Assembly: GCA_025361145.1 (NCBI GenBank)
Contig: JANYAV010000012.1
Coordinates: forward strand, 14,830 to 78,829
Direction: 5' to 3'
Source: Dehalococcoidia bacterium
GTDB taxonomy: Bacteria > Chloroflexota > Dehalococcoidia > Dehalococcoidales > UBA3254
DNA: 64,000 nucleotides
Part shown: positions 55,649-63,970 of the stretch, in pieces
How positions within the stretch are numbered: position 1 is the first letter of the stretch
How the letters are laid out: every line of letters starts with the position of its first letter
Made by a program: the position numbers and the translations under genes
The notes under the pieces: generated by a model
What the model was told of the DNA's origin: nothing
The model's database searches: none
What the model saw: the letters and a program-made list of their open reading frames with translations, nothing else

Positions 55649-56659
55649 ATGAAACTTCAAAACATAGCCCTAAAGTTAATAGCTTTCATGTTTTGCGCCT
55701 GGCTGCCCATCAACGCTGTCCTGCCCCCAGCAGATGACAGGGCAACCCCCGGTTACATCGCTGAAATTGGTGGAACTACCGCTGTTCTGAATCAGGAAAC
55801 TCTGCGCTGGGATCTACTCCAAATTGAAGCCCAGAAAGGCTGGTCTATTGTTACCGGTGGAAAAGATGTGCTGGTGGCAGTTCTGGATACCGGTATCGAT
55901 GATACCCATGCAGCCCTCGCTGGCAAGGTGGAAGGCAGAGTCAATTTCACTAACAGCCCAGCCGCAGACGTGCAAGGACACGGCACTTTTATTGCCGGTA
56001 TTATCGCCGCCGGCGCAGAGAATCCGGGCTGCCCCGGCCTGGCCTACAATGCCAAATTACTGGACGTTAAAGTCGCTGAGGACAATGGCAGCACGGATGC
56101 TAAAAAGGTAGCCCAAGGGATTATCTGGGCAGCTAACCACGGTGCTGAAGTGATTAATATAAGCATCGTAATCAATCAAGAATACCCTCTATTAGAGTAC
56201 GCGGTAGATTATGCCTGGGAAAAGGGTTGCGTAATTGTAGCCTCGGCCGGTAACAGGGCTACCACAACGCCCGTCTATCCCGCGGCCTATGCCAATGTAA
56301 TCGCGGTAGCCGCTTCCGATAAAAATGATGATCTGGCCCGCTGGTCCAATACCGGAAAGTGGGTGGATGTGGATGCCCCCGGCACCGAGATTTATTCAAC
56401 TCTTCCCGGCAATAAATATGGTACGAAATCCGGTTCTTCTTTCTCAGCCGCGCTGGTTTCCGGTGAAGCTGCCCTCTTATTTACCCGGGCCATAGATGTT
56501 GATAATGACGGCCTGCTCAACAACGAGATCAGCACCAATATTCTGAATAATTGCGATGTGATCCAGGGGCTGGAAAACACCCGCAAGCGAATCAACGTTT
56601 ATGACGCCGCCAAAGCGGCCGATATCATCCGCGAAATGCTGACGGTGACGGGGGGGTAG
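55649..56659 (+). CDS. Secreted subtilisin-like serine peptidase (S8)
   Basis: Signal peptide, then the D/H/S triad contexts VAVLDTGID, HGTFIAGIIAA and GSSFSAALVSG. Confidence 0.88.
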   Translation: MKLQNIALKLIAFMFCAWLPINAVLPPADDRATPGYIAEIGGTTAVLNQETLRWDLLQIEAQKGWSIVTGGKDVLVAVLDTGIDDTHAALAGKVEGRVNFTNSPAADVQGHGTFIAGIIAAGAENPGCPGLAYNAKLLDVKVAEDNGSTDAKKVAQGIIWAANHGAEVINISIVINQEYPLLEYAVDYAWEKGCVIVASAGNRATTTPVYPAAYANVIAVAASDKNDDLARWSNTGKWVDVDAPGTEIYSTLPGNKYGTKSGSSFSAALVSGEAALLFTRAIDVDNDGLLNNEISTNILNNCDVIQGLENTRKRINVYDAAKAADIIREMLTVTGG

Positions 56660-56681: not shown

Positions 56682-57190
56682 CACCCTGAGATGCTTCGCT
56701 ACGCTCCAGCATGACAACCTTACGCACTTCAGTATGACCGAAGGTTATTGGTGTCATTCTGGAGTCCCGATTTTATCGGGACGAAGAATCTGGTGGGGAG
56801 GGGAAAATAGGAATAGCAGTTATATGATATAATAGCCAGCAAATGCAAGAATATTATGTCAATATCATGACCAATAAATCAGGAACTTTATACACGGGAA
56901 TAACCAATAATTTGGAACGCCGTGTTTATGAACACAAGAACAAGCTGATTGAAGGTTTTACAAAACGATACAATATTACTCAACTGGTATATTTTGCTTC
57001 AGGTAATGATGTTACTGCTGCTATCACCATGGAAAAGCGGATTAAGGGAATGTTGCGAAGTAAAAAGATAGAGTTGATTAAAACAATTAACCCTCATTTC
57101 CAGGATTTAAGTGAGAGTTGGTTTGATTGCGGTAATAAAGAAGGAGTTTGACCTCACCCTGAGATCCTTCACTTCGTTCCAGGATGACAA
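56682..57190 (+). mobile_element. Putative selfish GIY-YIG cassette: a GIY-YIG gene bracketed by 36-bp direct repeats plus a hairpin
   Basis: DR1 (56682-56717) is caccctgagatgcttcgctacgctccagcatgacaa and DR2 (57155-57190) is caccctgagatccttcacttcgttccaggatgacaa, with 31 of 36 positions identical. A hairpin gtcccgat-ttt-atcgggac lies at 56764-56782. Confidence 0.4.
56843..57151 (+). CDS. GIY-YIG (URI-domain, COG2827-like) nuclease family protein
   Basis: 102 aa. YYVNIMTNKSGTLYTGITNNLERRVYEHK is the GIY-(X10)-YTG ... R ... E pattern. Confidence 0.85.
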   Translation: MQEYYVNIMTNKSGTLYTGITNNLERRVYEHKNKLIEGFTKRYNITQLVYFASGNDVTAAITMEKRIKGMLRSKKIELIKTINPHFQDLSESWFDCGNKEGV

Positions 57191-57221: not shown

Positions 57222-57250
57222 AAAGCCCGCTGGATTTTTCAGCGGGCTTT
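57222..57250. terminator. Bidirectional hairpin between the convergent GIY-YIG gene and the last fibre-operon gene
   Basis: 10-bp stem aaagcccgct/agcgggcttt, flanked by A and T runs. Confidence 0.7.
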
Positions 57251-57253
57251 GTT

Positions 57254-58834
57254 TTATTCCTTGTCTGTTGTCTGAGTAGCTTCAGCTTCCTGCAGCTGAC
57301 GTCTGCTGCGGAAAAGCGAAATAATCATTGTGGAGATTCCGGCGGCGATGCACAGCAGCCACCAGTAGTTAGTCTCCGAGACGTCAGGTATGATCCTGGG
57401 ATCTACCCACAACTCGTCGCCCAAAGGACCGGCGGTTACGGTATAGATGCCGCTGGTCCCGGGCATTAAAATCATATCCACTTCTGTGCTTTGTCCCGGA
57501 TTAAGGTGCACGGACTGGCTTTTTTGGATCTTGCCGTCTACCTTGATGACCACCACATATTCACCCGGCAGGCCGCCTTTGTTGATGACTCTGACTCGAA
57601 CGTCTGCACTTTGGCCCACCAGGATTCTTTGAGGCCTGACAGTCAGTCTCTGCAGCATAATATTGGCCGGCGGCTTGCCCGCGCCGGATTTCGCCAGTAC
57701 CACAAACAGCGAGAAGTGGTCTACCTCCGCCGCTACCTCCGGGCCTTCCGCGATAAAGCCGGCAGGGGGTGAAAGTTCTGTCCAGCCGTCCTGGTAGCTG
57801 TAGTAGAAAGCGGCCAGATCGTCTACTGTTTCAGGCAGAAGTTTATCGTTATATTTAATGATCAGGGTAGAAGGCCTATCCAGCTTCACACCGGTAATAT
57901 AGCCGTTAGTGACGCCGTTAATATCGTAATTCGGGCTGACGGGTATCCAGCCGTCCGGATAAGGGGGCACTTCAGAAACGTCAGGGTTGGTTACCCTGAT
58001 CTCCCAGGGAACGGTCTCTCCCACCTTGCTCAGGTCTACAGGGTACTGGCGGTTTTCATTAGAAAGGTGCACCTGGGTGCCCTGTAAGATATCCAGTGTA
58101 AAACTGCCGTCAGGCACAGTGGCTTTAAGACCGCCGATCACAATACCGTCAGCGGTTACCCTGGACTGGTCGCCGGCCTGAGGCATTACCAGGCTAATAA
58201 ACCGGTCTCCGCCGCCAGGCGGATTGGGAGTAGAAGGGGGCGTGGGTATGGGGTTAGGTTCAGGTTCAGGAGTTGTGGGTGGAGCACCCGTACCGCTTAA
58301 CTGGTAATTGACATCAAAAGAGATGCCGTCTCCCTGAACGATATTGTCGGTGTTAGAAGTAAAGTGGCTGCCGCCGCTAAGGGGCAAATACCAACGCCAG
58401 GTGAGTGTGACCGTGTCCCCCGGGTTTATAGCGGGGACAGTTAAGGTTTTAGGGCTGGAGGCGCTCATGGGAAACCCGGAAATAGGTCCCGGCATGGGAA
58501 AATTAGCGGCTGTCAGGCCGGAGCCGGAAACGCTGAATTGCAGATTATCGGCTAAATCGGCGGTTCCATCCTTACCGGCGGTATTGACGAATGAATCCAG
58601 CCAGATGAGCAGGGAGGCAGATTCAGTGCTGTTATTACTGACTTTTACTACCTTGGAGTCACTCTGGCCGGGGTAGATATTATTAAAGACCAGACTGGTA
58701 TTAGTTCCCCCCAGCGCATCGGTCAAACTAATGTTGATGCTGGCGGCGGAAACCGGGACTGAAGTGGGCAAGCCGAAGAGCAGGATCACTCCTGCCATCA
58801 TAATGGCTATCGTTCTTAACATCAGTGTTTTCAT
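57254..58834 (-). CDS. Membrane-anchored surface protein: signal peptide, TasA/camelysin-like domain, Pro-rich linker, unknown domain, CARDB-like Ig domain, C-terminal TM anchor
   Basis: - 526 aa with an AxA-type signal (SVPVSA/AS).
- N-terminal domain ends NIVQGDGISFDVNYQL, like the terminal strand of the neighbouring TasA-like proteins.
- Linker is PPTTPEPEPNPIPTPPSTPNPP.
- CARDB-like segment is VRVRVINKGGLPGEY...NPGQSTEV.
- C-terminal helix WWLLCIAAGISTMIISLF is followed by RSRR. Confidence 0.6.
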   Translation of the reverse strand: MKTLMLRTIAIMMAGVILLFGLPTSVPVSAASINISLTDALGGTNTSLVFNNIYPGQSDSKVVKVSNNSTESASLLIWLDSFVNTAGKDGTADLADNLQFSVSGSGLTAANFPMPGPISGFPMSASSPKTLTVPAINPGDTVTLTWRWYLPLSGGSHFTSNTDNIVQGDGISFDVNYQLSGTGAPPTTPEPEPNPIPTPPSTPNPPGGGDRFISLVMPQAGDQSRVTADGIVIGGLKATVPDGSFTLDILQGTQVHLSNENRQYPVDLSKVGETVPWEIRVTNPDVSEVPPYPDGWIPVSPNYDINGVTNGYITGVKLDRPSTLIIKYNDKLLPETVDDLAAFYYSYQDGWTELSPPAGFIAEGPEVAAEVDHFSLFVVLAKSGAGKPPANIMLQRLTVRPQRILVGQSADVRVRVINKGGLPGEYVVVIKVDGKIQKSQSVHLNPGQSTEVDMILMPGTSGIYTVTAGPLGDELWVDPRIIPDVSETNYWWLLCIAAGISTMIISLFRSRRQLQEAEATQTTDKE

Positions 58835-58877
58835 TGATCAATTTCACGACTAACTTTAAATCATTTACGACCCAATG

Positions 58878-59990
58878 TTATTCTTCAGTTCCGATAACGT
58901 AAGAGACGTAACGCCAGACCTTGATATAATCCAGGTAAGCCTTGGGCAGGCTGGTAGTGGTGTTAAAGAAAAAGTTCTGATTGGTAGGAGTAATGGCATT
59001 GGAAAAAGGAAAGGTCGAGGATCCCCCCGATGTTAACAGCTGGGCGTCATTCACAAATACTTCGTAGGTATCGGCGGTGGTATTGACGTTGGCGAATTGA
59101 ATATCATACAGATTGGTGGTTGAATAAGAATAAGCCGGTGAAAAACTGTTAATGGTCCCTGAGTTGGTAGTATAGTATTTAAGGTAGCTGTCGCTGTAGA
59201 AGCTAATTCTCGGACCCGCCGTGTTGTTAGCGCCGTTGGTGTTATTGGACAGCATCATATTGTAAACCAGATTGGTTTGCATAGGTTTGGATAGAAATTC
59301 TATATTGTAAGGCTGGGTCGGAAAAGCAAAGGCATAATTTCCGCCGTAGATATTATTATTGGTATAATCCTTATTGATGTACATGCTGTGGCTATTATGC
59401 TGCCCCGTGACGCTTGAATATTGTAACTGGCCTCTGGTTCCGCTGATTTCAGTCCATCCCGTTGGCACACTCTGGTTTTGATTGGGGTTACTGGTCCAGC
59501 TGGTCTCAAAGTCCTGATAATTCAGGAATAGAGATGACACGCTGCTTTCACTACCGGTGGTAGCGGCCGAAGTATTGCCGTAATACATATATATGATGGT
59601 TGGTGTTCCGCTGGCTTCGATAATAGGGACATTCACCCAGATTATAGCGCTGGTGGAAGCAGTGTAGGATTCTATCCAGTATGTCAGAGCTGTTGTCCCG
59701 TTTGAGCTGGTAAAACGGACGTCTGAGAAATCTGTATTCATATGGTCTGTCACGAAAGGGACATTCCTTAGTTTAAGGGGATAGGCGCTGGTTATAGCTG
59801 TTGCAGGATTGGTAATGACTATTTGTTTCCGCCATTTCCAATGCACGTCAAACCAGTCCGTACGGACGGTGACCACATTACCGGATACCTTCTCGGTATC
59901 GCTGAAATAGGCCACCGATTTACCTATCAGACCGCCGACCAGCATGACCAATACTATAATACTAAAGATGATCCAGTATTTTTTATTCAT
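58878..59990 (-). CDS. DUF2341/LamG(ConA)-like secreted protein carrying a SipW-cognate-type signal peptide
   Basis: - 370 aa with signal ...GKSVAYFSDTEKVSGNVVTV.
- DUF2341-like core: WKWRKQIVITN...DFSDVRFTS..GT.LTYWIE...IWVNVP...IYMYYGN.
- Asn/Thr/Tyr-rich second jelly-roll-like half.
- 4-nt overlap with the upstream peptidase gene. Confidence 0.65.
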   Translation of the reverse strand: MNKKYWIIFSIIVLVMLVGGLIGKSVAYFSDTEKVSGNVVTVRTDWFDVHWKWRKQIVITNPATAITSAYPLKLRNVPFVTDHMNTDFSDVRFTSSNGTTALTYWIESYTASTSAIIWVNVPIIEASGTPTIIYMYYGNTSAATTGSESSVSSLFLNYQDFETSWTSNPNQNQSVPTGWTEISGTRGQLQYSSVTGQHNSHSMYINKDYTNNNIYGGNYAFAFPTQPYNIEFLSKPMQTNLVYNMMLSNNTNGANNTAGPRISFYSDSYLKYYTTNSGTINSFSPAYSYSTTNLYDIQFANVNTTADTYEVFVNDAQLLTSGGSSTFPFSNAITPTNQNFFFNTTTSLPKAYLDYIKVWRYVSYVIGTEE

Positions 59991-60514
59991 AATTTGGCCT
60001 CTTTGACCTTTTTATCGGCAGCCAGCCGGGATATTTCTGAACGCAGATTTCTGACGCAGAGGTAGATGATATACAGGGTAGGGACCACCAGACCGGCTAT
60101 CAGACCCACTTCGGTTTTTAAAAAAGAGATAAAATAACCCACATAATCAGCATGAAAGCTTACTTTGCCAACCACATTGGCCGCTGGAATAGCCATCTCA
60201 TCAGTTTGAGAGACTGCGTCTCCCCGGGTTACAAAGCTTAACTGCTTTGCCTGATTTATCTTCACGATGCGGTGGCAGACATTATACTGGCTTTCGAAAG
60301 GCGGCTTGAAAATAATAATATCGCCGACTCTCAGGTCGGCTGGATTCACTCTGTTGGCCACTACCATGGTGCCTACGTGCAGCGTAGGCGTCATGCTCCC
60401 CGAACCGACGTTGTTGATAGACAGTCCCAGGCGGGGGGAAATGTAAACCAGCGAGGAGACCAGGACCAGGAAGAGCACTATTATTAATAAAAGCGTATCC
60501 CAAAGTTTGTTCAC
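59987..60514 (-). CDS. sipW: Signal peptidase I, archaeal/ER (S26B, SipW/Sec11) type, copy 2
   Basis: 175 aa with N- and C-terminal TM helices. GSGSMTPTL (Ser) and VCHRIV (His) motifs and a RGDAVSQTD box. It lacks the Lys/GDNxxxSxDSR motifs of bacterial LepB. Confidence 0.8.
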   Translation of the reverse strand: MNKLWDTLLLIIVLFLVLVSSLVYISPRLGLSINNVGSGSMTPTLHVGTMVVANRVNPADLRVGDIIIFKPPFESQYNVCHRIVKINQAKQLSFVTRGDAVSQTDEMAIPAANVVGKVSFHADYVGYFISFLKTEVGLIAGLVVPTLYIIYLCVRNLRSEISRLAADKKVKEAKL

Positions 60515-60540
60515 TCTGCTTTCTTTATTATCCTTATATC

Positions 60541-61242
60541 CTACTGCTGGTGAATTGTATAATATAAGTCGATAGAAAGTCCATTGCCCATGAAGGTACC
60601 CGCCAGACTGGCCGGCACCGGGTCAATAAGGCTAAGCTGCATCGTCATCTTGATTATTCCCGTGGCGGGGTTGGTAGAATCTGTGGCGGTCAAAGGGCCA
60701 ATTTTGGTTGCTTCCCATTCGCCGTTTCCGGCTATACCGGTTGTATTGGTGTCATGGGTCAGGTCATATAAATCATAATAGCCTTTTGAACCGTGATCTG
60801 TCAGATAGATGGTGGGATCCAGATTGCCGTCTGTAGTCGTGTTTAATAAATTGACGTTTCTGCCGTAGTTTAGTTGAACCAGTTTGAATAACTTCAAGGT
60901 ATCATCCAGGCTGCCGTTAGTGCCGGTATTGCCGGTGCCGCTGATACTGAAAGCAAAATCTATCTTGGTGGCAGCTACTGTGCCTTCGTCTCTGACCCAC
61001 ATTTGGGCGATTGGTGAGGCATAGCCGGCTTTAAAATTAGCGTCTGTAAACCAGCTGGAAAAACCGTCATATTGAACGTACCCGCTTCCCGGATTGATGA
61101 CTGTCTTCAGGTCCATCCTGCCCGCCGTCACCAGGTTATCTGCGGACCGTTCACTATCTTGCAAATACGCCCAGATACCCCCGGCGGTCAGGCTGAGAAT
61201 AATTACAAAAGCTAGAGTTAATCCCACTATTTTCTTAATCAT
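60541..61242 (-). CDS. TasA/camelysin-like (peptidase M73-fold) secreted protein with SipW-cognate signal, paralogue 3
   Basis: 233 aa. MIKKIVGLTLAFVIILSLTAGGIWAYLQDSERSADNLVTAGRMDL. Terminal strand GLSIDLYYTIHQQ. Confidence 0.7.
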   Translation of the reverse strand: MIKKIVGLTLAFVIILSLTAGGIWAYLQDSERSADNLVTAGRMDLKTVINPGSGYVQYDGFSSWFTDANFKAGYASPIAQMWVRDEGTVAATKIDFAFSISGTGNTGTNGSLDDTLKLFKLVQLNYGRNVNLLNTTTDGNLDPTIYLTDHGSKGYYDLYDLTHDTNTTGIAGNGEWEATKIGPLTATDSTNPATGIIKMTMQLSLIDPVPASLAGTFMGNGLSIDLYYTIHQQ

Positions 61243-61261
61243 TTCTTTAGCTTCGAGTTTC

Positions 61262-61320
61262 GAGCTATGAGCTTCCAGTTACCAATTTGTTTCTTATTTG
61301 TAATTTCTTATCTGGTTTTC
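61262..61320 (-). repeat. A-rich oligo-repeat (sense = minus strand) upstream of paralogue 3
   Basis: The minus strand reads gaaaaccagataagaaattacaaataagaaacaaattgg. It has the same AAATAAG/ACAAATA unit family as 643-712 and 54543-54676, and again lies on the mRNA-sense strand. Confidence 0.55.
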
Positions 61321-61387
61321 TATCGAAAGGGTCTGATGTTTCTCATCCGGCCCTTTCGATAGGGGAGCAGGGCTTGCCCTGCTCCCC
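61320..61387 (-). terminator. Two tandem strong hairpins downstream of the 241-aa subunit gene (attenuator or mRNA-stabilising structure)
   Basis: Hairpin A has a 12-bp stem ctatcgaaaggg/ccctttcgatag (61320-61362). Hairpin B has an 11-bp GC-rich stem ggggagcaggg-cttg-ccctgctcccc (61362-61387). Confidence 0.6.
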
Positions 61388-61405
61388 CGGAATTACTAAG
61401 AGCTA

Positions 61406-62131
61406 TTATTCTCCAGCTTGAACTAGAGCGAAGGACAGATCGAAGGTAATGTCATCATCCTGGGCTTTGTTATCGGGATCAATAGTAAAGTGGCTGCCGG
61501 CATTCTTCGGGAAATAATAATCTACATAGAAGATACCAACACCGCTACCGCCAGCAACATTTCCAACTAATAGGGTGTCAGTTATCCCAGGAACCATAGA
61601 ATTGGCAGTTGCGTATGCACTATCAGGAGCAATACCACCATAAGTGACTGCTTCTCCGCCAGCATAAGCGAATTTAGCTCCCGCGCTGGTGATGTAATAA
61701 TCACCGGTGTTCCAGGTTCCTGAAGTATCGGCATCAACCCAGATCGCTAATTTCAACAAGCCACCCAGTTCTCCGTCAGTTCCGCTATTGGTTCCAGGAT
61801 CTCCGGCTTTATCTTCAACCCCACCGGAAGTCCAGGTATTTTCATGATTGACCAGGTTGAGTGTTTTAAAACGAAAATCACCGTTTATATTACCGCCGTT
61901 AGTGAGGGTCCAGTTACCGGCATGCCCTTTATCACCGGGTTTCATTTTAGTGGCTGAACCGATACTGATGGGGAGTAAGGCGTTAGCACCACCGACTGTG
62001 AGGCTAAGTTTCCCGGCCGTGATGGTGTTGCCGGTTGAGGTAACAACATCATTGAAGTAGGCCCAGGTGCCTGTGCCGAGCATCGCGATGACCGCGATCA
62101 GGGCCACTGTGAGTCCAATAATCTTTTTCAT
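61406..62131 (-). CDS. TasA/camelysin-like secreted protein with SipW-cognate signal, paralogue 2 (candidate major subunit)
   Basis: 241 aa. GTGTWAYFNDVVTSTGNTITAGKLSL compares with B. subtilis TasA GGGTWAAFNDIKSKDATFASGTLDL. It also has a KMKPGDKG strand and the terminal strand AQDDDITFDLSFALVQ. Confidence 0.75.
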   Translation of the reverse strand: MKKIIGLTVALIAVIAMLGTGTWAYFNDVVTSTGNTITAGKLSLTVGGANALLPISIGSATKMKPGDKGHAGNWTLTNGGNINGDFRFKTLNLVNHENTWTSGGVEDKAGDPGTNSGTDGELGGLLKLAIWVDADTSGTWNTGDYYITSAGAKFAYAGGEAVTYGGIAPDSAYATANSMVPGITDTLLVGNVAGGSGVGIFYVDYYFPKNAGSHFTIDPDNKAQDDDITFDLSFALVQAGE

Positions 62132-62172
62132 CGTTTTCTCCTATTTTATTTTTCTTTTTTATATCTTATCAA

Positions 62173-62201
62173 GAGGCCGGCACTTGCCATGTCCCGGTCT
62201 C
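62173..62201 (-). terminator. Hairpin downstream of paralogue 1
   Basis: Stem gaggccgg/ccggtctc (7 of 8 bp) with a 13-nt loop. On the minus strand it is followed by an A-rich spacer and then the AGGAGAA SD sequence of the next gene. Confidence 0.4.
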
Positions 62202-62214
62202 GATTTGCCTTCTA

Positions 62215-62982
62215 TTAGTCCTGATGCAGAGAGTACAGGAAATCTGTGTATAATTTCAAGCCCTGCACCTTGTTATTAACGGTATGGGTGGTGTCATCGG
62301 GCAGGTAATAAGTGAAGTGCATGTAGATGGTGGAGTTGGCCGTCAAATAAGTAGTTCCGCCCGCTGAACCGTTGGGAATCGGTACGCTAGTCCAGGTAGT
62401 TTCACCGGTGGTATTGGGCCGGCTGGCATAGGTGGGTGAAGAAGCAGCACCGATATAACCCGTGGTGGTAGTGACCCAGGGAGCGAAGCGCCCGGTTAAA
62501 CTGGGAGAAGCGCCCAGATCGGTAGTGGTCCCGCCCGGATTTAACAGGATGCTGTAAGCGGGAGGAGTTGCCGAAGCGGTGGTGCTTAACCAGATCGCTA
62601 CTTTGGAGGCAGTTCCCAGGTCTCCTACGGTTACTACTGTGGTCCCGTCAGCAGCATGTAATTTACCGGTGGGAAAGCCCGCTGCATCCTGGCCGGCGTT
62701 AGTAATTTTAATATCCAGCTTCCCGGAGATGTTGGTGGCCCCATCATTTTTCAAGGAAATGGATTGATGGGCTGCTCCCGACCCGTTGGCGGCTGTGGGT
62801 ACGAAGGCTGAGTCAGTCAGGAAAGTATAGGGTGTGGTGCCGCCGATAGTCAGATCCAGCGTTCCGGCTGTCACATAGTTGTCTGCTGATTTTTCGGTAT
62901 CGGAGAAGTAAGCGAAGGATCCGACACCAGCTACGGCGATAATGATGATGGCCGCGATGGCTAAACCTAATATTTTCTTCAT
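62215..62982 (-). CDS. TasA/camelysin-like secreted protein with SipW-cognate signal, paralogue 1
   Basis: 255 aa. MKKILGLAIAAIIIIAVAGVGSFAYFSDTEKSADNYVTAGTLDLTIGG. Thr/Gly/Ser-rich. Terminal strand VQGLKLYTDFLYSLHQD. Confidence 0.72.
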   Translation of the reverse strand: MKKILGLAIAAIIIIAVAGVGSFAYFSDTEKSADNYVTAGTLDLTIGGTTPYTFLTDSAFVPTAANGSGAAHQSISLKNDGATNISGKLDIKITNAGQDAAGFPTGKLHAADGTTVVTVGDLGTASKVAIWLSTTASATPPAYSILLNPGGTTTDLGASPSLTGRFAPWVTTTTGYIGAASSPTYASRPNTTGETTWTSVPIPNGSAGGTTYLTANSTIYMHFTYYLPDDTTHTVNNKVQGLKLYTDFLYSLHQD

Positions 62983-63052
62983 TTAATGTTCCCCCTGTAT
63001 TGGAATTTATATAATGGTAAGCGGGTTTTCCCGCGAATACTCAAATTACCAT

Positions 63053-63832
63053 CTATGAAAGATCGGCTAAGATTTTTCTCATCTCGTTACGGATGTTATC
63101 ATTAACCTGTTTATTGCTAAAAACCTGGGCAGGCACTTCTTTTGCCGCTTTTGCGGCCTTGACTTCAGCAACCACAGGTTTAATCACTTCAGGCTGGGCT
63201 GCCTTTTTGACCGCTGGCGTAACCGGTTCAGGACTAACCGGTTTGGACTGGCGCTTGTTCATCACGCCACTGTCAGCCCCCACGGCTACAGTTTGCATAA
63301 CCGGGCTAATACCAGCGGCGCTTTTCTTTTTATCATCTTTAAAGGCTTCTTTAAGAATATCTTTGATCAGGAACCCGACCAGGATCAGAGTAGGAATGAT
63401 CACGATTAAAAACCAGCCTTTCTTGGAGTTGGTCAGGTTCGTAATCCAGCCGATGGCCGGAACCTTGAAAAGATAGGACCCCTGAACGGATGAGATTGCG
63501 GTGGTGCCTGAATCAGCACTTTTATTGGCGTCACCTTTGGTGGTGATCTGTCCGTTTTCTATGCTAACGGCACGGTGAGTGACTATTTTGCCTTGATTGT
63601 CGAAGGTAATAATCTCCCCGGGTTGAATCTCATGCACGGGACCGGTGATGATGATATCTCCGGCGCTGATGCCGGGTTTCATACTGTCACTTCGTACGAT
63701 ATACATACCATAACCGGGCACCAGTTTTACAAAAGCTACGCCCAGTATAGCCAGGCCGATAATTACCGTTATAGTCCAGGACACTATCTGGCCGATCTTC
63801 TTGGTTCTTATTCGTTTAGAGGCTGCGAACAT
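63053..63832 (-). CDS. sipW: Signal peptidase I, archaeal/ER (S26B, SipW/Sec11) type, copy 1, with a Lys/Ala/Pro/Val-rich C-terminal extension
   Basis: 259 aa. N-terminal TM helix, SDSMKPGI (Ser), VTHRAV (His), a KGDANKSADS box, and a second TM helix. The tail is about 90 aa (PVSPEPVTPAVKKAAQPEVIKPVVAEVKAAKAAKE). Confidence 0.78.
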   Translation of the reverse strand: MFAASKRIRTKKIGQIVSWTITVIIGLAILGVAFVKLVPGYGMYIVRSDSMKPGISAGDIIITGPVHEIQPGEIITFDNQGKIVTHRAVSIENGQITTKGDANKSADSGTTAISSVQGSYLFKVPAIGWITNLTNSKKGWFLIVIIPTLILVGFLIKDILKEAFKDDKKKSAAGISPVMQTVAVGADSGVMNKRQSKPVSPEPVTPAVKKAAQPEVIKPVVAEVKAAKAAKEVPAQVFSNKQVNDNIRNEMRKILADLS

Positions 63833-63882
63833 CTTAACTTTCCTCTTGCAAATTACTTTTCTACCTATTGATTACATATAAA

Positions 63883-63970
63883 ATTATAGGCTTTGCAGGT
63901 AACAAACGGATTAAGGAACGCCCTGAATTGGTTACAATGGGTTACAATTTGGGTTACAGCGGGTTACAAT
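63883..63970 (-). promoter_or_regulatory. Putative fibre-operon control region: a consensus -10 plus four phased direct repeats
   Basis: A minus-strand TATAAT lies at 63883-63888, 51 nt upstream of the ATG, with no good -35. GGTTACA(A/G)(T/C) units start at 63930, 63940, 63952 and 63962, giving 10-12 bp spacing. Confidence 0.5.

Follow-up and report, generated by a model that had tools for sequence, protein, structure and literature searches.

Results

Gene content of the locus

The stretch of DNA analyzed here (64,000 nt of contig JANYAV010000012.1, assembly GCA_025361145.1, from a Dehalococcoidia bacterium, hereafter the window) carries close to one end a cluster of seven open reading frames (ORFs), named g1 to g7, which probably encodes a surface fiber of the TasA type together with its own signal peptidases. 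All seven lie head to tail on the minus strand, from 63832 to 57254. A check of the ORFs gave spacings, from g1 to g7, of 70, 83, 163 and 26 nt, a 4-nt overlap of the g5 stop with the g6 start, and 43 nt, and thus agrees with the first-pass annotation of this DNA, which had described seven co-directional genes separated by gaps of 26-163 nt or by a 4-nt overlap. The encoded proteins are two signal peptidases (g1 and g5), three TasA-family paralogues (g2, g3 and g4), a DUF2341 protein (g6) and a membrane-anchored protein with a TasA-like domain (g7). A bidirectional intrinsic terminator starts 4 nt past the stop codon of g7, and the window edge is 168 nt upstream of g1. The coordinates of all features are collected in Table 1, where L numbers designate loci.

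The remaining window is occupied by ordinary housekeeping genes, including those for a ClpB-like chaperone, PcrA, PyrG, pyruvate kinase, HolA, YchF and ACR3. The exact proteins of the window are also encoded on a 186-kb contig at NCBI, which has no annotation, and on contigs of the Logan collection (SRR23617162/3), and in none of the sources searched do they bear a name.

Table 1. Features of the fiber operon, of its surroundings and of related loci
Feature	Position	Strand	Evidence
g1, signal peptidase A, Sec11/SipW-type, 259 aa	63832-63053	minus	TIGR02228 77.4 bits
g1 low-complexity tail, C-terminal 95 aa	63053-63340	minus
g2, TasA-family subunit paralogue, 255 aa	62982-62215	minus	TIGR04088, PF12389, alignment A1
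Promoter-like site TTGATA-18-TAAAAT just upstream of g3	62143-62172	minus	Consensus scan, 10/12 matches; weak alone
g3, TasA-family subunit, probable major shaft subunit, 241 aa	62131-61406	minus	Hidden Markov models, profile, AlphaFold model
Two tandem GC-rich hairpins right after the g3 stop	61320-61389	minus	-47.9 kcal/mol, z -6.5
g4, divergent TasA-family paralogue ("B-type"), possible adapter, 233 aa	61242-60541	minus	Motif present
g5, signal peptidase B, Sec11/SipW-type, 175 aa	60514-59987	minus	TIGR02228 99.8 bits
g6, donor-only tip/initiator candidate, 370 aa	59990-58878	minus	TIGR04088, DUF2341, hhalign
g7, acceptor-only terminator/anchor candidate, 526 aa	58834-57254	minus	hhalign, CARDB, transmembrane segment
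Bidirectional intrinsic terminator, end of operon	57222-57250	both	13-pair stem, T-runs on both strands
GIY-YIG nuclease-domain gene, small	56843-57151	plus
S8 subtilase gene, secreted product	55649-56659	plus
GC-rich hairpin after A-type TasA gene, relatives	L004 10640-10772; L005 10613-10719; L008 1421-1545; L012 10242-10353; L006 8384-8493; L007 6449-6660
490-aa protein with SipW-like N-terminus	L003 10699-12171
CHASE4-PAS histidine kinase and OmpR-type regulator	L012 4587-7974; L015 3870-6751; L016 2953-5834
Receiver-like ORFs, 120-146 aa	L004 8954-9382; L005 8946-9362; L006 6715-7095
PKD/InlB-repeat protein, 762 aa	L001 5298-7586
PKD/InlB-repeat protein, 1470 aa	L013 1002-5414
Short ORFs with repeated peptide	L001 7650-8100	minus
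Three GTWAYFSD-type proteins and Sec11-type peptidase	L010 7858-11586

Three paralogues of the TasA family

The Pfam model of the TasA family, PF12389 (Peptidase_M73/TasA; cut-off 22.5 bits), matches g3 with 33.8 bits and g2 with 28.6 bits, whereas g4, with 19.6 bits, falls just below the cut-off. The paralogues are well separated from each other, g2 being 30% and g4 22% identical to g3. Among 119 homologues of g3, all but one or two carry PF12389; the few that have names are called "TasA family protein" and come from Chloroflexota or Dehalococcoidales. We rejected another label found on homologues, "spore coat-associated protein N" of the Joint Genome Institute (JGI), as a legacy or automatic name.

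A profile built from an alignment of 52 sequences (A1) was compared with the sequences of solved structures in the PDB and matched only TasA among them (8AUR and 5OF1, E-value 2.5e-8). Profile positions 26-219 align to TasA residues 2-205, that is, from the F-x-D of the mature N-terminus to the final F-x-x-x-Q strand, and by this alignment the subunit family is homologous to Bacillus subtilis TasA over its whole mature length. At the same time, the TasA equivalog model NF046066, with a cut-off of 450 bits, gives only 26.6 bits for g3 and 13.5 bits for g2; by these scores g2 and g3 are members of the TasA family and not TasA orthologues.

Among the subunits an AlphaFold (AF2) model was made for g3, and its mean confidence (predicted local distance difference test, pLDDT) is 86. 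The first-pass annotation had proposed that the subunits fold as TasA-like jelly rolls, and the g3 model does so: its best PDB match in Foldseek is the TasA fiber (8aur_A; E-value 3.2e-6, probability 1.0, template modeling (TM) score 0.45-0.47), followed by the pond fibril TLP-1b, TasA crystal forms, the Pyrobaculum bundling pilus and cannulae (5OF1/2, 7UEG, 9H8B). A TasA-like KPGD strand previously pointed out in g3 aligns with NLKPGD of TasA. A second proposed signature, a C-terminal strand of the form Q-x-D...F-D...L-x-Q, is clear in g3 and g7 and looser in g2, but is degenerate in g4. The mature proteins are acidic (pI 4.4-5.1, with 6.9-10.6% Asp+Glu in the subunits) and free of cysteine, as is usual for extracellular proteins.

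A shared SipW-type signal and donor strand

Four proteins of the operon, g2, g3, g4 and g6, had been noted to open with the same unusual signal, and this motif is real: GSFAYFSDTEKSADNYVTAGTLDL in g2, GTWAYFNDVVTSTGNTITAGKLSL in g3, GIWAYLQDSERSADNLVTAGRMDL in g4 and KSVAYFSDTEKVSGNVVTVRTDWF in g6, the latter being common with the others only as far as N-x-x-T-V and then diverging. It exceeds chance by the NCBIfam model of the SipW-dependent-type signal domain, TIGR04088 (cut-off 19 bits), which scores 36.2 bits for g2, 40.8 for g3 and 22.1 for g6; g4 remains below the cut-off at 14.9 bits though the motif is present, and TIGR04088 does not match g7. Thus the expected SipW-signal matches were obtained for g2, g3 and g6, as were PF12389 matches above the cut-off for g2 and g3.

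In B. subtilis, SipW cuts TasA between GGGTWA and AFNDIKSKDAT, and the stretch right behind the cut, residues 28-38, serves as the donor strand and fills in the sheet of the following subunit (PMC9674648, PMC10151520). A TasA subunit frees its own strand only after being complemented itself, and the first strand presumably comes from TapA (PMC9674648, PMC10151520). Aligned with TasA, the proteins described here would be cut after (W/F/V)-A and before Y-(F/L)-x-D. The mature N-termini predicted by this homology are YFSDTEKSADN for g2, YFNDVVTSTGN for g3, YLQDSERSADN for g4 and YFSDTEKVSGN for g6. The nearly invariant columns of alignment A1 include G21, T22, W23, A24, Y25, F26, D28, N35, A39, G40 and L44, and also columns in the last strand. 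Such conservation of the donor segment is what a structural role, beyond that of a mere signal, would lead one to expect.

Two specialized signal peptidases

The TIGR02228 model (ER/archaeal-type signal peptidase I equivalog, MEROPS S26B; cut-off 51.85 bits) matches g1 with 77.4 bits and g5 with 99.8 bits, and both fall below the cut-off of the bacterial-type signal peptidase model TIGR02227. They are also below the cut-off of the SipW equivalog NF046067 (190 bits), with 76.6 bits for g1 and 82.0 for g5. The SGSM (Ser), CHR (His) and GD..D motifs of g5 align to SGSM, VHR and GD..DD of human SEC11A (7P2P), and g1 has SDSM, THR and GDAN at the positions of the g5 catalytic motifs, the overall identity of g1 to g5 being only 25%. 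Judged by these motifs and by TIGR02228, both are Ser/His/Asp peptidases of the Sec11/SipW type, which bears out the earlier description of two Ser/His, S26B-type peptidases embedded in the operon.

Both proteins are short, each with one N-terminal and one C-terminal hydrophobic segment. In g1 the second transmembrane segment is followed by a low-complexity tail of 95 aa, rich in Lys, Ala, Pro and Val and presumably cytoplasmic; the length of g1 orthologues ranges between 155 and 328 aa. In B. subtilis, the C-terminal tail of SipW plays a regulatory part of its own in the formation of biofilms.

Orthologues of g1 (43-49% identity) open the cluster in L004-L009, and orthologues of g5 (34-41% identity) are present in L005, L006 and L008. 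Compared with the two peptidases of L006, g1 reaches 160 bits with the first and 63 with the second, and g5 138 bits with the second and 62 with the first. By this reciprocal pattern, peptidases A and B are two separate orthologous groups.

A donor strand without a TasA body: g6

The g6 protein consists of a SipW-type signal, a TasA-like donor strand, a DUF2341 domain and a C-terminal half. In a profile-profile comparison with the TasA family (hhalign), only residues 1-43 of the g6 family match, with 95.6% probability, and they cover columns 1-41 only of the TasA profile. The TapA model TIGR04087 (YqxM_for_SipW) does not match g6. Sharing the signal and donor strand, and nothing more, with the TasA family fits the accessory or tip protein that was proposed at first, and g6 may be regarded as a functional analogue of TapA, not a homologue, in which a TasA-like donor strand is set on an unrelated body.

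As to this body, g6 had been described as a DUF2341/LamG protein. The DUF2341 part is above the gathering score (PF10102, 69.2 bits at residues 87-166; 82.2 bits in the L006 orthologue), but it is the only part to pass, and the LamG half was not confirmed: the C-terminal half of g6 has no Pfam match at E-values up to 10, and the g6 profile finds nothing among PDB sequences. The L006 orthologue, 31% identical over the full length, gives a sub-threshold match to Sialidase-like_CBM (24.2 bits against a threshold of 27). A word-index search found four relatives of g6, and a structure model from a four-sequence alignment was unusable (pLDDT 38).

In L003, the place held in other loci by the DUF2341 protein is taken by a 490-aa protein that adjoins the TasA gene; it has a SipW-like N-terminus (TTTAYCIDLETAAGN) and no Pfam domain. 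This protein may be an alternative type of tip.

A membrane-anchored TasA body without a donor strand: g7

The g7 protein has the opposite composition. It begins with an ordinary signal (VSA/AS), followed by a TasA-like jelly-roll domain without the donor strand (aa 28-183), a Pro/Thr linker, a middle domain, a CARDB domain (aa 398-468), a C-terminal transmembrane segment and a basic tail. The g7 family matches the TasA family in hhalign with 98.9% probability (E-value 2e-17) over columns 38-222 only, from "TAGTLDL" to the last strand. CARDB scores 30 bits in Pfam and is also seen against 2KL6 and 3IDU, and the middle domain has no Pfam match at E-values up to 10. These data uphold the earlier view of g7 as a membrane-anchored TasA-domain base. 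A SipW-type signal had not been claimed for g7, and its absence is the key feature of the protein.

This feature is common to the family. An exhaustive profile search with the g7 family retrieved 331 proteins at E-values of 1e-30 or lower, among them dozens of clusters of full length (about 500 aa); a word-index search, which found eight relatives, understates the family by comparison, and a metagenome scan confirmed no relatives of g7. The SipW/donor motif was found in the first 90 residues of none of 60 full-length g7 relatives, against 116 of 119 free subunits, and a transmembrane segment after residue 150 is present in 54 of the 60 relatives and in none of the 119 subunits. One relative, P0229, matches PF12389 directly, starting from profile position 54.

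Some anchor relatives (P0204, P0199 and P0216) have a cytoplasmic HD_5 domain of the HD-GYP type after the transmembrane segment (127.6 bits in P0204), and in another one, P0152, the transmembrane region is followed by Big_2 domains. In g7 itself only a short basic tail follows the transmembrane span. The HD-GYP-fused anchors suggest a link between the base or state of the fiber and the turnover of cyclic di-GMP (c-di-GMP).

Conservation of the cluster

With one genome taken per species, relatives of the cluster were found in eight Dehalococcoidia or Dehalococcoidales assemblies and one Methanomethylovorans. A comparison of gene neighborhoods, proposed with the first-pass annotation, shows that the gene order recurs in Dehalococcoidia assemblies and in metagenome contigs. 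The full collinear set (peptidase A, three TasA genes, peptidase B, DUF2341 protein and CARDB anchor) is conserved in L006, at 28-48% identity, and in L013/L014, where the flanking genes hisD, GIY-YIG, serA and that of a large PKD/InlB-repeat protein are shared as well. The long form is partial or ended by a contig edge in L005, L008, L012 and L016. A "short form" with a single peptidase, a TasA gene and an anchor is found in L003, L004 and L007, and further partial or contig-truncated versions in L009, L015 and the P0123 contig. The latter, from a close relative, has a DUF2341 gene for a protein of 870 aa.

The B-type TasA gene (g4-like) is located directly upstream of the second peptidase gene in L005, L006 and L008, and the loci that lack the second peptidase and the tip gene (L003, L004 and L007) have no g4-like paralogue. 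The B-type TasA, peptidase B and tip genes occur together as a linked module.

In one clade (L012, L015 and L016) genes for a CHASE4-PAS histidine kinase and an OmpR-type regulator are located directly upstream of the cluster, and in L004, L005 and L006 small receiver-like ORFs, without Pfam matches, precede peptidase A. Both are likely regulators. In the lineage of the window nothing equivalent adjoins the operon.

In the archaeal locus L010, from a Methanomethylovorans metagenome-assembled genome, three proteins with a GTWAYFSD-type N-terminus are accompanied by a Sec11-type peptidase of 339 aa. Among these three, one carries a long tail of Gly-Gln repeats, and a second, of 351 aa, is rich in Thr, Asp and Ser. 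Thus the pairing of this signal with this peptidase crosses the domains of life.

Expression signals

The best Shine-Dalgarno match of the operon, AGGAG, precedes g3, and none is recognizable for g7. A promoter-like site is located just upstream of g3 (Table 1). The two hairpins that follow the g3 stop codon are more stable than all shuffled sequences (0 of 200 as stable), and a GC-rich hairpin after the A-type TasA gene is present in six relatives, where the position is kept and the sequence differs. The g3 hairpins are probably an intra-operon attenuator or mRNA stabilizer that sets the stoichiometry of the subunits. As soft evidence, these signals fit an abundant major subunit and scarce end pieces.

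Neighboring genes

Two genes on the plus strand are convergent to the operon and lie beyond its terminator. The S8 subtilase gene was rejected as a part of the system for these reasons and for its absence from all of the loci searched, and the GIY-YIG gene, also past the terminator, was rejected since it recurs only in the closest syntenic relatives, L013/L014.

On the other side, just past the window end, a gene on the operon strand, flanked by hisD and the peptidase A gene, encodes a large surface protein with domains of the PKD and InlB B-repeat (Flg_new_2) kinds, 762 aa long in the lineage of the window (L001) and 1470 aa in L013. It recurs only in L013/L014, and neither the P0123 contig nor the more remote loci have it; the protein may be additional cargo specific to the lineage, or a neighbor without relation to the fiber. 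The 714-nt gap that precedes g1 contains no convincing gene. In its part outside the window, some 200-650 nt upstream of g1, a similar peptide, "ARPDLVKPP...", recurs in short minus-strand ORFs, a hint that the upstream region of the operon contains repeated DNA elements.

Discussion

Proposed fiber

We propose that the operon encodes a self-contained TasA-type surface fiber, assembled by donor-strand complementation with neither chaperone nor usher, and we give this reading a probability of roughly 0.7. The sequences and the g3 model establish the membership in the TasA family, the fold of g3, the type of the two peptidases, the division into donor-only and acceptor-only proteins and the conservation of the cluster. 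Polymerization we infer because the donor segment is conserved and because g6 and g7 divide strand and body between them; the order of the subunits, the pairing of peptidases with substrates, and a role of the fiber in adhesion, aggregation or matrix formation are proposed in the same sense.

In the proposed scheme, g2, g3, g4 and g6 would be exported by the Sec pathway and cut by g1 or g5 after (W/F/V)-A, exposing the donor strand Y-F/L-x-D. Having the strand but no TasA body, g6 can only donate and would therefore initiate the chain, giving the first strand as do TapA in Bacillus and TafC in the Tafi pili described below; it would end at the distal tip, bearing a DUF2341 domain that may be lectin-like. 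Along the shaft each TasA-like subunit would accept a strand and then free its own for the next one, with g3 probably the major shaft subunit, g2 a second shaft paralogue and g4 possibly an adapter. Finally, g7 has the body, a membrane anchor and no donor strand, and so can only accept; it would take the last strand, end the growth and tie the fiber to the membrane.

Several observations weigh against this picture. No filament has been seen. The g4 protein is below the cut-offs of both TIGR04088 and PF12389, the PF12389 matches span only the N-terminal parts of g2-g4, and the TM-scores of the g3 model to TasA are moderate (0.45-0.47). The scheme does not account for two peptidases, the four substrates being similar at their cleavage sites, and on the P0123 contig a second peptidase is not called separately. 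The label of a "lectin-like tip" for g6 is a guess.

Other readings of the operon

A different division of labor would give the two peptidases separate tasks. Peptidase B, whose translation is coupled to that of g6, would act on the tip and on g4, the adapter, and peptidase A on the shaft subunits, and the split labor would order the assembly, making the operon a minimal pilus machine that has no cell wall to attach to. In this variant g7 would both stop the growth and report it, and the HD-GYP-fused anchors of relatives would sense the assembly or tension of the fiber and pass it on to c-di-GMP breakdown. Taken jointly, these propositions seem to us unlikely.

It is a rather unlikely reading, too, that g2, g3 and g4 each build a homopolymer of their own, separate or alternative, or give a loose matrix, for instance depending on conditions, with g6 and g7 as independent surface proteins that share the secretion route. 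The high divergence of g2, g3 and g4 would be consistent with it, the promoter-like site of g3 and the strong hairpins downstream of it could split the transcription units, and the short-form loci L003, L004 and L007 manage with a single TasA gene. However, the donor-only g6 and acceptor-only g7 are hard to explain outside a donor-strand chain, all 60 anchor relatives are without a donor strand, and the co-occurrence of the B-type TasA with peptidase B and the tip gene suggests ordered minor subunits.

The TasA-like proteins could also be monomers, either camelysin-like proteases or components of a surface layer, that SipW-type peptidases merely mature. The Pfam name of the family is still Peptidase_M73/camelysin, TasA is stable as a soluble monomer (PMC9674648), and filament data for Chloroflexota homologues were not found in the literature. 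On the other hand, solved fibers (TasA, TLP-1b, the bundling pilus and cannulae) give the best matches in both sequence and fold, many of the nearly invariant columns of the family are in the donor segment, and a strand-less, membrane-anchored paralogue would have no obvious role among monomers; we hold this reading to be improbable. Lastly, the JGI name [quoted passage not shown], which would make the small proteins precursors of ribosomally synthesized and post-translationally modified peptides, has only automated source names behind it and is effectively refuted by the confidently predicted jelly roll and by the length of the proteins (230-255 aa), which also have full-length TasA homology, while Pfam and NCBIfam scans of the seven proteins found no modification enzymes in the operon.

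Comparison with known systems

By family, the closest known system is tapA-sipW-tasA of B. subtilis. Both loci have proteins of the PF12389 family, a SipW-type signal with the donor strand right after the cut, and a dedicated Sec11/SipW-type peptidase encoded in the operon; in both, the peptidase and accessory genes overlap, and the accessory protein (TapA, or g6 here) has a TasA-like N-terminal strand on an unrelated body. In contrast to the Bacillus locus, the subunits and peptidases described here are non-orthologous to their counterparts, there are three subunit paralogues and two peptidases, and the host belongs to the Dehalococcoidia and is not a Firmicute. Bacillus also has no membrane-anchored TasA-domain protein that lacks the strand.

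In architecture, the haloarchaeal Tafi pili (Tat-fimbriae, TafA-TafG) are the closest. They comprise TafC, a tip or initiator with a donor strand and a laminin-G-like domain, the adapter TafE, the shaft subunit TafA, the peptidase TafD, and TafF, a terminator or anchor with an N-terminal pilin-like domain, a Sec and not a Tat (twin-arginine translocation) signal and a C-terminal membrane region (PMC11821415, PMC12337348). The roles of TafA and TafD are known from knockouts, whereas those of the tip and anchor are models (PMC11821415, PMC12337348). By description the logic is the same, TafC corresponding to g6, TafE possibly to g4, TafA to g3 and g2, TafF to g7 and TafD to g1 and g5, and the correspondence is one of analogy only. 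Unlike the proteins described here, whose N-termini have no twin-arginine motif, the archaeal pilins are exported by Tat and fall into a cluster of their own within the TasA superfamily. Moreover, TafD works with a DUF5305 partner, and none of our seven proteins matches DUF5305.

The AbpX, AbpA and AbpB loci likewise encode donor-strand polymers of the TasA superfamily with minor subunits, tips, a dedicated peptidase and anchors (PMC9245690; bioRxiv 10.64898/2026.01.04.697558). A survey of AbpX reported homologues in Chloroflexota and HD-GYP genes nearby (bioRxiv 10.64898/2026.01.04.697558). The AbpX loci differ in having a 10-transmembrane peptidase with DUF5305 instead of the two-transmembrane SipW type; the bacterial AbpX anchors are of the cell-wall SLH (S-layer homology) or LPXTG kind, in contrast to the transmembrane-anchored, subunit-like domain of g7, and the subunits contain about 15% Asp+Glu, compared to 7-11% here. 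Chaperone-usher pili (type 1 and P) are also polar donor-strand-exchange fibers with a tip adhesin, adapters, a major subunit and a terminator that fixes the fiber. However, they are unrelated in sequence, their FimH tip accepts a strand whereas g6 would donate one, and they need a periplasmic chaperone and an outer-membrane usher, neither of which is encoded here.

In view of the Tafi pili (PMC11821415, PMC12337348) and the AbpX loci (bioRxiv 10.64898/2026.01.04.697558), the earlier statement that no characterized example of such an architecture was at hand claimed too much novelty, since related architectures are known. Wang et al. in 2022 had listed Chloroflexota among the phyla with PF12389/TasA homologues (PMC9245690), and we found no literature that ties Dehalococcoidia or DUF2341 to TasA/SipW fibers. 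What appears to be new, as far as the gene sequences can tell, is a locus of the canonical TasA type that combines a putative donor-only tip, a putative acceptor-only transmembrane anchor and two specialized SipW paralogues, in Dehalococcoidia.

Fibers of the TasA superfamily held together by donor strands are emerging as a route to biofilm matrices and bundling pili that is common to bacteria and archaea. How fibers that use no chaperone, usher or sortase are started, stopped and attached is still open, even in Bacillus. In the cluster described here the end pieces are explicit in the sequence, one being a strand only and the other an anchored body only, and therefore initiation and termination are directly testable with a few recombinant proteins. 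A specialist would hardly be astonished by such a system; it is an unusually clean test of how a chaperone-free fiber starts, stops and is attached. The HD-GYP-fused anchors of its relatives provide a regulatory lead that may connect the state of the fiber with c-di-GMP signaling. Overall, the cluster points to a surface-fiber system in the Dehalococcoidia, bacteria that are important in subsurface and dehalogenating communities.

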